This document shows positions 26,639 to 28,087 of a stretch of DNA of 64,000 bases, piece by piece. Both the position numbers and the translations under genes were made by a program. Positions within the stretch are counted from its first letter, which is position 1, and each line of letters begins with the position of its first letter. The stretch is from Candidatus Hodarchaeota archaeon. Lineage in GTDB: Archaea; Asgardarchaeota; Lokiarchaeia; Sigyniarchaeales; SOKP01. The notes beneath the pieces are model-generated. The model did not search any database. It was given only the letters and a program-made list of their open reading frames with translations, and had not been told where the DNA came from. The stretch lies in NCBI GenBank assembly GCA_048886685.1, contig JBHLKM010000014.1, positions 59,903 to 123,902 of the forward strand. The letters are read 5' to 3'.

Positions 26639-28087
26639 CTAATTACCTCCTAAATCAACTGGTTTATAGGTCATCATAGATTCATTGCCACGTTCTATGT
26701 AAAAAAATTCAGCTTTTTCAGGTTTGAGCTTTTCTTTTAAATATCGAATAACCTGTAATCCTTTAGTAAACTCATCACAAATAAAAATATCTATGCTAAT
26801 ATAACCGTGTTCCGGCCAAGTATGAATTGCTGCATGACTAGTTTCCAATACAGCAATAGCACTATACCCAAATGGTTGATAATTATGATGATAAATATCA
26901 AGTACTGTTAGATTGGCTGATAGCAGTGAATTTATAAATATTTTTTGGATTAAATCATTGTTTAATAGTGTTTTTTGCTGTATAAAGCGTAATTCTCCAA
27001 TAAAATGAAACCCAACAGGGAGAAATGGAGGTTTAGATTTCTTTTTTACTTCAGAGGTATAAATAGGACCAGAAGCGAATCTAAATTTATATTTAGATCC
27101 GGGATCTGCTACAGTTTGTAAGTAGTAAAGATGAGAAAATTGTCCAATAATGCTAGCACCTTTATAATGATTGAAATCGGGAAGCATTTCTGTTATTATA
27201 AATCCATGATCCAATATTGATAGCTGCAATTTTTGCATTTCATTTGGAGGTTTATTCCCAAAACTGAGAACACATTTTTTTCCAACAATGGGATAATTTT
27301 TATTATTTATCGTGATATTCGATTTTAATACTTGCTTTGCTCTTTTTAAGAACAATCTTAAACCTTCATTAGTATATGGTGGATCCATTACAGCTATATC
27401 ATATTTATTAAGGATATTTTTAGGGATAGGTTCTCTTAAATCATGATGGAGAACATTGAAATTATTTAAAGAGAGTTTCCTTGCAGTTTTTGAAAGAAAA
27501 TTTAAAACTCTATCATCTATATCCACTACTGTAATTTCATTTGCTAATTTTGTCATTCCAACCGCCAAAGAAATGAAATCATCATCCCCTAAAAAAATGA
27601 TTCCTCTTCCCTCAATGTCTCCTTTTTTTAGTAAATACAGTGTTTTCTTAACTACTGTTGAAAAGTCTGCGTGAGATTGATCAAGAGCAAATTCTGGTGA
27701 TGGTCGATTATCAAGATAATTTTTTATATTATTTAAATAAGAAAATTCATCAGATAATAATATATTCACTAAAAATTCTTTTATGATATTTTCAAAATTC
27801 CCGGGTAGAGGATCATAATCGAATTTTAAATTCAGATTCGATTTTACCCACTCTCTCCCTTTTTGGCCAAGTAAATTTCTTCTCTCAATAATATCGGCTT
27901 TAACTAACTCATTCCTGACGGCAGCAAGCGAAGGAATTGCAATTCCTGTTTTTTGAGCCACCTTTTTATTTTTTAGAGAGGGAAATCGATACATTGTTAG
28001 AAGAATTGATCGAACACCTTCAATACCTTCGCTTAACTGTGCTCTCTCAGCGATTAATGTAAGTAACTTCTCTATTTCTAAATCCAT
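26639..28087 (-). CDS. fusion: wHTH + branched-chain polyamine synthase BpsA-like domain + pyruvoyl-dependent S-adenosylmethionine decarboxylase domain
   Basis: BpsA motifs RP.P...DQ, FLGDDDFIS, DIDDR, HDLREP, DPPYT. SpeD motifs GFHFIGEL, HNYQPFGYS, ETSHAAIHTWPEHGYISIDIFIC. Confidence 0.88.
   Translation of the reverse strand: MDLEIEKLLTLIAERAQLSEGIEGVRSILLTMYRFPSLKNKKVAQKTGIAIPSLAAVRNELVKADIIERRNLLGQKGREWVKSNLNLKFDYDPLPGNFENIIKEFLVNILLSDEFSYLNNIKNYLDNRPSPEFALDQSHADFSTVVKKTLYLLKKGDIEGRGIIFLGDDDFISLAVGMTKLANEITVVDIDDRVLNFLSKTARKLSLNNFNVLHHDLREPIPKNILNKYDIAVMDPPYTNEGLRLFLKRAKQVLKSNITINNKNYPIVGKKCVLSFGNKPPNEMQKLQLSILDHGFIITEMLPDFNHYKGASIIGQFSHLYYLQTVADPGSKYKFRFASGPIYTSEVKKKSKPPFLPVGFHFIGELRFIQQKTLLNNDLIQKIFINSLLSANLTVLDIYHHNYQPFGYSAIAVLETSHAAIHTWPEHGYISIDIFICDEFTKGLQVIRYLKEKLKPEKAEFFYIERGNESMMTYKPVDLGGN

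Follow-up and report, generated by a model that had tools for sequence, protein, structure and literature searches.

A 64-kb window (the whole stretch analysed, 64,000 nucleotides (nt) of contig JBHLKM010000014.1 from the Candidatus Hodarchaeota archaeon assembly GCA_048886685.1) carries a minus-strand gene that joins two steps of polyamine synthesis in a single chain: a BpsA-type aminopropyltransferase followed by a class 1b pyruvoyl S-adenosylmethionine decarboxylase (AdoMetDC; also named SpeD). We give a probability of roughly 0.8 to the reading that this gene encodes a bifunctional, self-contained polyamine aminopropylation enzyme, which from its sequence would both make and use decarboxylated S-adenosylmethionine (dcSAM). 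The architecture is not rare. It is common in Asgard archaea, occurs independently in Bacillota and is public under uninformative names (‘adenosylmethionine decarboxylase’ in RefSeq and GenBank, in some cases ‘N(4)-bis(aminopropyl)spermidine synthase’ in UniRef), uncharacterised. The full-text literature yielded no description of a BpsA–AdoMetDC fusion or of Asgard polyamines, with most subscription papers outside this coverage and a description elsewhere possible.

An earlier note, written from the DNA letters alone, had described the gene as one uninterrupted open reading frame in which BpsA is fused to a C-terminal pyruvoyl AdoMetDC, and both statements hold. The frame (26639–28087, minus strand) translates without interruption into 482 amino acids (aa); homologues share the same first methionine, and the start is therefore taken as the ATG at 28087 and not the TTG six codons upstream at 28105. 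Pfam profiles place BpsA_C at residues 118–333 (E = 5.9e-44; 150.6 bits against a gathering score of 27) and AdoMet_dc at residues 361–467 (E = 4.8e-28; 98.1 bits; profile positions 1–107 of 107), in one conserved frame, and the NCBIfam equivalog model for AdoMetDC, TIGR03330, scores 98.1 bits, above its curated cut-off of 75.65. With phmmer, the transferase finds the BpsA structure 5xnc (E = 4.8e-25) and the SpeD domain the AdoMetDC structure 1tlu (E = 3.6e-16). The motifs named in the earlier note are all there (GDDD at residues 167–170, DIDDR at 189–193, DPPYT at 235–239, ETSH at 415–418 within ETSH...IHTWPE at 415–426), as is the N-terminal winged helix-turn-helix (wHTH), for which Pfam returns weak HTH_24/MarR matches at residues 26–70. 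Judged by alignment, this wHTH is integral to all BpsA-family proteins and is no addition brought by the fusion; a profile of unfused relatives covers Tk-BpsA and 2qm3 from the N-terminus onwards and matches the wHTH of ScaR as well.

At least 409 proteins of 464–480 aa, with the same whole architecture and 64–90% identity, are present in Asgard metagenome-assembled genomes (MAGs). The closest come from MAGs named Promethearchaeota, Lokiarchaeota, Thor-, Hermod- and Hodarchaeota, and the 14 genome loci recovered all belong to Promethearchaeota MAGs, which makes the host a Loki-type Asgard archaeon. An assembly artefact, a concern raised in the earlier note itself, is rejected, as homologues of the same length and frame lie on hundreds of independent contigs.

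An AlphaFold2 model of the fusion, built on 62 fused homologues, has a mean predicted local distance difference test score (pLDDT) of 87.6 and a predicted template modelling score of 0.70, with low confidence only at residues 329–334 and 346–355, at the junction of the two halves; across residues 1–90 the pLDDT is 89–95. The modelled transferase half superposes on 5xnc, 6j27 and 2qm3 with Z of 27.5–28 and a root mean square deviation (rmsd) of 2.5–3.0 Å over 215–231 residues (VIA-align), and Foldseek also finds a BpsA-like fold (E = 2.6e-18), whereas generic class I methyltransferases reach Z of at most 22 (METTL5, 22). An ordinary methyltransferase, another concern of the earlier note, is rejected on this comparison, the BpsA fold being clearly the better match (Z of 27.6–28 over 226 residues for Tk and Tth BpsA, against 22 at most). 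The decarboxylase half fits onto the AdoMetDC structures of T. maritima and A. aeolicus with Z of 16.5–16.8 (rmsd 2.2–2.5 Å, 116–117 residues).

The decarboxylase half has the residues expected of a working class 1b enzyme, with one departure at the processing site. It shares the fold of T. maritima AdoMetDC (1tlu, 1vr7; 2.2 Å over 116 residues) at about 30% identity; Thr416 lies opposite Glu62 and Ser417 opposite the pyruvoyl-forming Ser63, and the downstream His and Cys are kept. The two proteins differ in the residue before the serine, Glu in T. maritima and Thr in the fusion, and in the 357-residue N-terminal extension to which the domain is tethered here. The serine codon (AGT, 26839–26837) is exactly where the earlier note had placed it, preceded by Thr. 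The ETSH motif that it quoted is present in this protein, but its Glu is not conserved: in the Loki clade the site reads Thr-Ser-His in 117 of 119 sequences and Ser-Ser-His in the other 2, after K, Q or E. E-S-H occurs in 17 of the 30 fused representatives, among them all named examples, Asgard or bacterial, that fall outside the Loki clade, and in 8 of the 11 free-standing Asgard SpeDs examined; on these sequences, the Thr-Ser-His of the Loki clade is derived.

Could the threonine block processing and leave the decarboxylase dead or regulatory, for example as a sensing appendage for S-adenosylmethionine (SAM)? Degenerate SpeD domains do occur in the family, as in P0129 (Promethearchaeota), in which Gly replaces the Ser and the Cys is lost. 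Here, however, more than 100 sequences of 64–90% identity conserve Ser417, His422, Cys437 and W424-P-E426; S417, H422 and C437 are kept in at least 90% of the 62 fusions, and the domain is the sole AdoMetDC in genomes that keep a dcSAM-dependent domain. The residue before the processing serine also varies among pyruvoyl enzymes (Lys in E. coli SpeD, Ser in PvlArgDC, Gly in PanD). A dead decarboxylase is thus very improbable, and conservation of Ser417, His422, Cys437 and W-P-E makes selection for catalysis evident at the level of sequence. Cleavage between Thr416 and Ser417 would produce a 47.4-kDa chain (wHTH, transferase, linker and beta strands) and a 7.7-kDa alpha chain that starts with the pyruvoyl group, a predicted layout that agrees with the earlier proposal of a transferase left on the beta chain; the two chains would remain together, as in other class 1b enzymes.

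Processing sites of other kinds occur among relatives. In Asgard family f27, free SpeD genes directly upstream of an unfused bpsA (L028:3017–3397, plus strand; L029:3580–3960, minus strand) read ...LKE-T-H-ISIHTWPE, with Thr instead of the pyruvoyl-forming Ser; if processed at all, these proteins would form a 2-ketobutyryl group instead of a pyruvoyl group. A third BpsA–SpeD fusion clade, of metagenomic proteins of about 420–445 aa (P0196, P0203, P0204, P0219, P0222, P0249 and others), has N-S-N, T-S-N or A-S-N and no E-S-H at the site, yet keeps HTWPE and the Cys.

The transferase half is, by its profile match, a clear member of the Pfam family BpsA_C. In Tk-BpsA, the GDDD motif (Asp159/160) positions the aminopropyl group of dcSAM, Asp225, Glu259, Tyr290 and Tyr316 activate the acceptor, and a flexible acidic C-terminal cluster (Glu339, Asp342–Glu345) serves as covalent aminopropyl carrier in a ping-pong mechanism (PMC12979288). 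That 2026 review treats the BpsA family as thermophile-specific makers of branched polyamines and mentions neither fusions nor Asgard archaea. If the fused enzyme were a BpsA in this sense, it would take spermidine from elsewhere and convert it into N4-aminopropylspermidine and N4-bis(aminopropyl)spermidine, with SpeD only supplying the donor. In favour of this, Tk and Tth BpsA (EC 2.5.1.128; 5xnc, 6j27) are the best matches in the PDB, and they share with the fusion the wHTH, the Rossmann domain, BpsA_C, GDDD, the DPP Asp (D235, corresponding to Tk D225) and the FNxY Tyr (Y308, corresponding to Tk Y290). G167, D168 and D170 do not vary among 62 fused and 64 unfused relatives, with D169 kept in 61 of 62 and 55 of 64, respectively, and the invariant positions across the 62 diverse fusions further include D136, Q137, D235, P237, Y308, Y343, T344, W424 and E426.

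The similarity to Tk, Pfu and Tth BpsA begins at the wHTH and ends at the FNxY Tyr. We used Tk-type Asgard orthologues (L037–L039) as stand-ins for Tk-BpsA in the motif alignment, in which the position of Tk Glu259 falls on the SFGNK loop, at Lys279 or Asn278, and the Tk Tyr316 region is without sequence alignment. Position 279 is K or R in nearly all fused clade members (60 of 62) and in most of the unfused ones (49 of 64). No acidic cluster corresponding to Tk E339 and D342–E345 is present after IYTSE in the fusion; the segment that follows carries a net positive charge (mean +1.4 over 14 residues in the clade) and leads directly to SpeD. The end of the transferase has a single conserved acidic residue, Glu346 (E or D in 57 of 62 fused and 48 of 64 unfused), next to Y343 (62 of 62 and 64 of 64) and T344, both invariant across the clade. 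MAFFT places IYTSE on the [YF]RIET strand of Tk-BpsA, and the VIA range (348 to 347) suggests its DIYxDEE tail. One defining feature, the acidic carrier tail, is missing, and membership in the functional BpsA group (EC 2.5.1.128) is not shown by the sequence.

The conserved Lys in the acceptor pocket also bears on a different chemistry, in which the transferase would use SAM itself, move an aminocarboxypropyl group onto the amine and leave decarboxylation to the pyruvoyl domain, a new route of carboxyspermidine-like kind. Nothing direct favours it, as the fusion shows the coupling of both activities and not their order. The invariant GDDD pairs with the amine of dcSAM, the acidic site would be expected to exclude the carboxylate of SAM, and SpeD is a full canonical AdoMetDC match in other fused clades, which makes such a route highly improbable.

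Our transferase tree (93 rows, quick tree search, unrooted) contains three Asgard-containing clades and places the fusion outside that of the characterised Tk and Tth enzymes. Clade 1 is the Tk type (L037–L040, a separate starred clade); its members end in an acidic tail, ...DEDIYVDEELASA, and L038 matches Tk-BpsA (5xnc) and the P. furiosus homologue over the full length at 367–371 bits. Other Asgard lineages do possess a true Tk-type enzyme: its score against 5xnc is 367 bits, and that of this protein 91. Clade 2, to which this protein belongs, is marked by the invariant Y-T in I-Y-T-[GS]-E and by an S-F-x-x-K-x-P loop. Clade 3, which is very divergent, comprises P0121 (see below) and proteins from speD-speE-bpsA-like operons.

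The gene inventory of the source genome (4.42 Mb, 47 contigs, 100% complete; hereafter G000) shows how far the fusion stands alone. Its only AdoMet_dc domain is that of the fusion gene, linked to the transferase in one chain, which supports well the self-supply of dcSAM claimed in the earlier note. G000 further carries one SpeE (115 bits; NF002010 at 218 bits and TIGR00417 at 192 bits are its best matches, below their curated cut-offs), one pyruvoyl arginine decarboxylase (PdaD), LysA and one other decarboxylase dependent on pyridoxal phosphate (PLP). A carboxyspermidine route was considered for G000 and rejected: nspC was not found, and only LysA scores (40.7 bits against a cut-off of 409). 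On contig C12, argS and the genes for agmatinase and deoxyhypusine synthase lie together in one orientation, as an operon (L004:515–3823, minus strand), which resembles the agmatine-linked hypusine route proposed for haloarchaea.

The wider distribution was followed in two Asgard families: f1, the Loki family (45 genomes), and f22 (17 genomes), whose best database match, P0127, is named Heimdallarchaeota. In f1, AdoMet_dc and BpsA_C occur in the same 7 of 45 genomes, always in one frame of 475–496 aa, whereas in f22 exactly one AdoMet_dc is present in 16 of 17 genomes, within a frame of about 460 aa in 14 and in two shorter frames (362 and 392 aa) that are probably cut at contig ends. The fusion is thus accessory in f1, where it is patchy even within a genus, and near-universal in f22. 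PdaD was found in 36 and agmatinase in all 45 of the f1 genomes. A real SpeE was found in f1 only in G000 and not in the other six of the seven fusion carriers, nor was one found in any of the 17 f22 genomes; weak Spermine_synth matches in f1 relatives were rejected as generic Methyltransf_12/31/25 proteins, which also occur where AdoMetDC is absent. Most f1 genomes have agmatinase, with neither SpeE nor AdoMetDC found. In carriers, the fusion is usually both the sole AdoMetDC and the sole candidate aminopropyltransferase, which points to a module that is independent of SpeE. The spermidine that classical BpsA branching would need usually has no visible endogenous source in fusion carriers.

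These inventories also bear on what the decarboxylase makes. Neofunctionalisation of SpeD is widespread (PMC10407285), and the unusual Thr-Ser site and the long stem branch of the Loki clade would fit a domain that, like SpeDA or SpeDC, decarboxylates arginine or ornithine and supplies the acceptor instead of the donor. In that case no dcSAM source would remain for the fused transferase or for SpeE, and PdaD already gives agmatine in 36 of the 45 family f1 genomes, which argues for genuine AdoMetDC activity; in addition, sister fused clades keep the canonical E-S-H and the TIGR03330 score lies above the equivalog cut-off. We regard an acceptor-supplying SpeD as improbable.

The textbook BpsA function can be weighed on the same evidence. 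It gains from the SpeE of G000, as well as from the shared fold and catalytic residues, and loses by the separate clade, the missing acidic carrier tail, the Lys or Arg that aligns near Tk Glu259, and the genomes in which no SpeE was found (6 of the 7 Loki-family carriers and all of f22). Tk and Tth BpsA are also unfused, whereas the Asgard protein is fused to AdoMetDC, has a basic linker where they have the carrier cluster and occurs in lineages not known as thermophiles, in most of which no SpeE was found. We consider the textbook function rather unlikely. The branched product N4-bis(aminopropyl)spermidine, which the earlier note had assigned to the enzyme, is accordingly unsupported as stated and, given the clade, the tail and position 279, unproven. 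N4-branching of spermidine is possible, especially in the SpeE-bearing G000, and direct aminopropylation of agmatine or putrescine may take place; the products are probably not confined to the textbook branched polyamine.

The evolution of the architecture offers Rosetta-stone evidence that the two activities belong together. A full HMMER search covering 1.84 billion cluster representatives recovered 5531 relatives, and a domain-architecture check of the best 150 (50% identity clusters) found BpsA_C followed by AdoMet_dc in 30 and the reverse order in 2. Archaeal carriers among them are named as Odinarchaeota, Heimdallarchaeota and Hodarchaeales MAGs; bacterial fusions come from Erysipelothrix sp. 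and E. anatis (436 aa), Vagococcus fluvialis (445 aa, 109 cluster members), Enterococcus sp. (516 aa) and a Lachnospiraceae bacterium (564 aa). On the transferase tree, the Asgard fusions of clade 2 (Loki, Odin, Heimdall-named and Hodarchaeales) share one starred branch (99), the Bacillota fusions are placed elsewhere among zinc-ribbon forms, fusions of about 440 aa form a separate group and two fusions fall with the Tk type. Because fused proteins lie in several separate clades, the fusion has arisen several times. In the SpeD-domain tree, the Asgard fused domains group at only 81% support, and we claim no single origin of the fused domains from this poorly resolved tree. Asgard genomes without the fusion have speD directly upstream of bpsA or within the same operon, and such repeated coupling, by fusion or within operons, speaks strongly for use of the decarboxylase product by the clade-2 transferase.

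Unfused clade-2 proteins show what can occupy the place of the decarboxylase. They are about 390–400 aa long, and 53 of the 103 checked end in a CxxC...CPxC zinc ribbon (P0137, P0143–P0145, P0151, P0158, P0163 and P0164 are examples). Those with a ribbon (from Bathyarchaeia, Hermodarchaeota, Latescibacterota and other Asgard archaea) share IYT[GS]E and SFxxKxP with the fusion and often lie beside speD, but have CxxC...CxxC at the place where the fusion has its SpeD domain. The 500–564 aa Bacillota fusions have both, the ribbon being kept between the two domains, whereas the Asgard fusions have lost it; the position of their short linker is that of the zinc ribbon in unfused relatives and of the acidic tail in Tk-type BpsA.

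The closest functional precedent is the fusion of a class 1b AdoMetDC with a SpeE-type transferase from Candidatus Pelagibacter, which has been functionally validated (PMC11107197) and likewise makes and consumes dcSAM in one polypeptide. In that protein AdoMetDC is N-terminal and the transferase sits on the alpha chain, whereas here the order is reversed, with the transferase on the beta chain. The Pelagibacter transferase is of the SpeE family, whereas the one described here is of the unrelated BpsA_C family and has no Spermine_synth match in Pfam.

Taken with the preferred reading of a self-contained enzyme, these observations suggest the following sequence of events. After self-cleavage, the SpeD site would decarboxylate SAM to dcSAM, and the BpsA-type domain would bind dcSAM through GDDD, move its aminopropyl group to an amine acceptor and release methylthioadenosine. 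The first acceptors, favoured from the gene inventories, would be agmatine and/or putrescine, made by PdaD and agmatinase, and further rounds on its own products might lead to spermidine-like, possibly longer or branched polyamines. In G000, the fusion would also supply dcSAM to the separate SpeE and to the divergent BpsA-like P0121. The identity of the domains, the conserved catalytic residues, the single copy and the repeated fusion or operon linkage are shown by the comparisons above, whereas cleavage at Thr-Ser, production of dcSAM and the choice of acceptor are inferred from the protein sequence and the gene inventories.

Several observations weigh against this scheme. The apparent absence of SpeE rests on incomplete MAGs (70–100% complete), and uptake of spermidine from the environment is a possible alternative source. 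The predicted processing site is Thr-Ser and not the usual Glu-Ser, and a long stem branch leads to the Loki SpeD domains in the poorly resolved SpeD-domain tree. Without an acidic tail and with Lys279 near the position of Tk Glu259, the mechanism and acceptor may differ from anything characterised. The linker, finally, is of low confidence in the AlphaFold2 model, and for that reason we claim no inter-domain channel.

Table 1. Coordinates of the fusion gene, its domains and key residues, and the element at its start (window positions).
Feature	Position	Strand	Remark
Whole gene, 482 codons plus stop	26639..28087	(-)	Single chain of wHTH, BpsA-type aminopropyltransferase and AdoMetDC
Winged-helix domain, residues 1 to ~100	27788..28087	(-)	Weak HTH_24/MarR matches
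BpsA_C catalytic (Rossmann) module, residues 113–333	27089..27751	(-)	Pfam, 5xnc match, fold
GDDD motif, G167–D170	27578..27589	(-)	Positions dcSAM aminopropyl group in Tk-BpsA
Lys279 in clade-specific SFGNKPP motif	27251..27253	(-)	Aligns near acidic acceptor-site Glu259 of Tk-BpsA
I-Y-T-S-E motif, residues 342–346, transferase end	27050..27064	(-)	Low-confidence, probably flexible segment, pLDDT ~50
Short net-basic linker VKKKSKPPFLP, residues 347–357	27017..27049	(-)	
Class 1b pyruvoyl AdoMetDC (SpeD/SpeH) domain, residues 358–468	26684..27016	(-)	Pfam, TIGR03330, 1tlu
Predicted self-cleavage site Thr416–Ser417	26837..26842	(-)	Ser417 would become the pyruvoyl group
His422 of IHTWPE	26822..26824	(-)	Opposite conserved His of T. 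maritima AdoMetDC
Cys437 of FICDE	26777..26779	(-)	Opposite conserved active-site Cys of T. maritima AdoMetDC
Perfect 19-bp palindrome TTGTATAATTATTATACAA plus third half-site 15 bp further upstream	28087..28128		Candidate promoter or operator

The palindrome at the gene start (Table 1) overlaps the first base of the start ATG. TTGTATAAT occurs three times in the window, each time within the same 42 bp at this place, and two of the copies form the palindrome. The element is kept upstream of the orthologues L011, L012 and L014 (82–84% protein identity) and is absent upstream of the more distant L019 and L020. It may act as an operator, to which the wHTH of the enzyme itself perhaps binds, or belong to the promoter of a leaderless transcript. 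No polyamine operon context was found around the fusion gene, here or in the relatives' loci examined; its neighbours in the window (G+C 27–34%) are ABC-2 transporter genes, a DinB-like gene and unknown genes, and in relatives the neighbours are unrelated genes.

G000 encodes a second BpsA_C protein, P0121 (360 aa; contig C22, L007:1081–2163, plus strand), with GDDD, DPPY and an acidic C-terminus. It is very divergent (63 bits to Pfam, 31 bits to 5xnc), groups on the tree with proteins from speD-speE-bpsA-like operons of other Asgard families, and its gene lies 20 nt upstream of the only SpeE gene of the genome (L007:2184–3101, plus strand). The pair was found in none of the 44 other family f1 genomes. 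Lacking an own speD in G000, the pair would rely on the fusion gene for dcSAM.

The composition of the genome shows no hyperthermophile signature, in line with the earlier remark that this lineage is not usually regarded as hyperthermophilic, although the indices disagree. The IVYWREL index of 0.414 would correspond to about 53 °C, a value that we suspect is inflated in a genome of 31% GC, whereas the charged-minus-polar index (4.9%) and the tRNA G+C content (59%, from 14 tRNAs only) are read as mesophile-like; no 16S gene was found in the assembly. The Bacillota genera that carry fusions are known as mesophilic. With a large sister clade in lineages not known as thermophiles and in Bacillota, repeatedly fused to AdoMetDC or linked to it in operons, the BpsA family is broader than the thermophile-specific picture. 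The conserved Thr-Ser site of the Loki clade is also a natural experiment on the role that the residue preceding the serine plays in pyruvoyl formation.

Spermidine counts as an ancient and universal polyamine and is required for hypusine formation on eIF5A/aIF5A. A whole Asgard family, f22, appears to be without SpeE and free SpeD, with only the fusion present. We tentatively suggest that in SpeE-less Asgard lineages (f22 and part of the Loki family) the fusion may be the only aminopropylation machinery, building spermidine-like and perhaps longer or branched polyamines straight from agmatine or putrescine. The main interest of the gene lies in this apparent role as the sole aminopropylation system of such lineages, compacted into one gene, and in its extension of the BpsA family well beyond thermophiles; if the role is true, it would be a functional replacement of spermidine synthase from an unrelated enzyme family, in archaeal relatives of eukaryotes.

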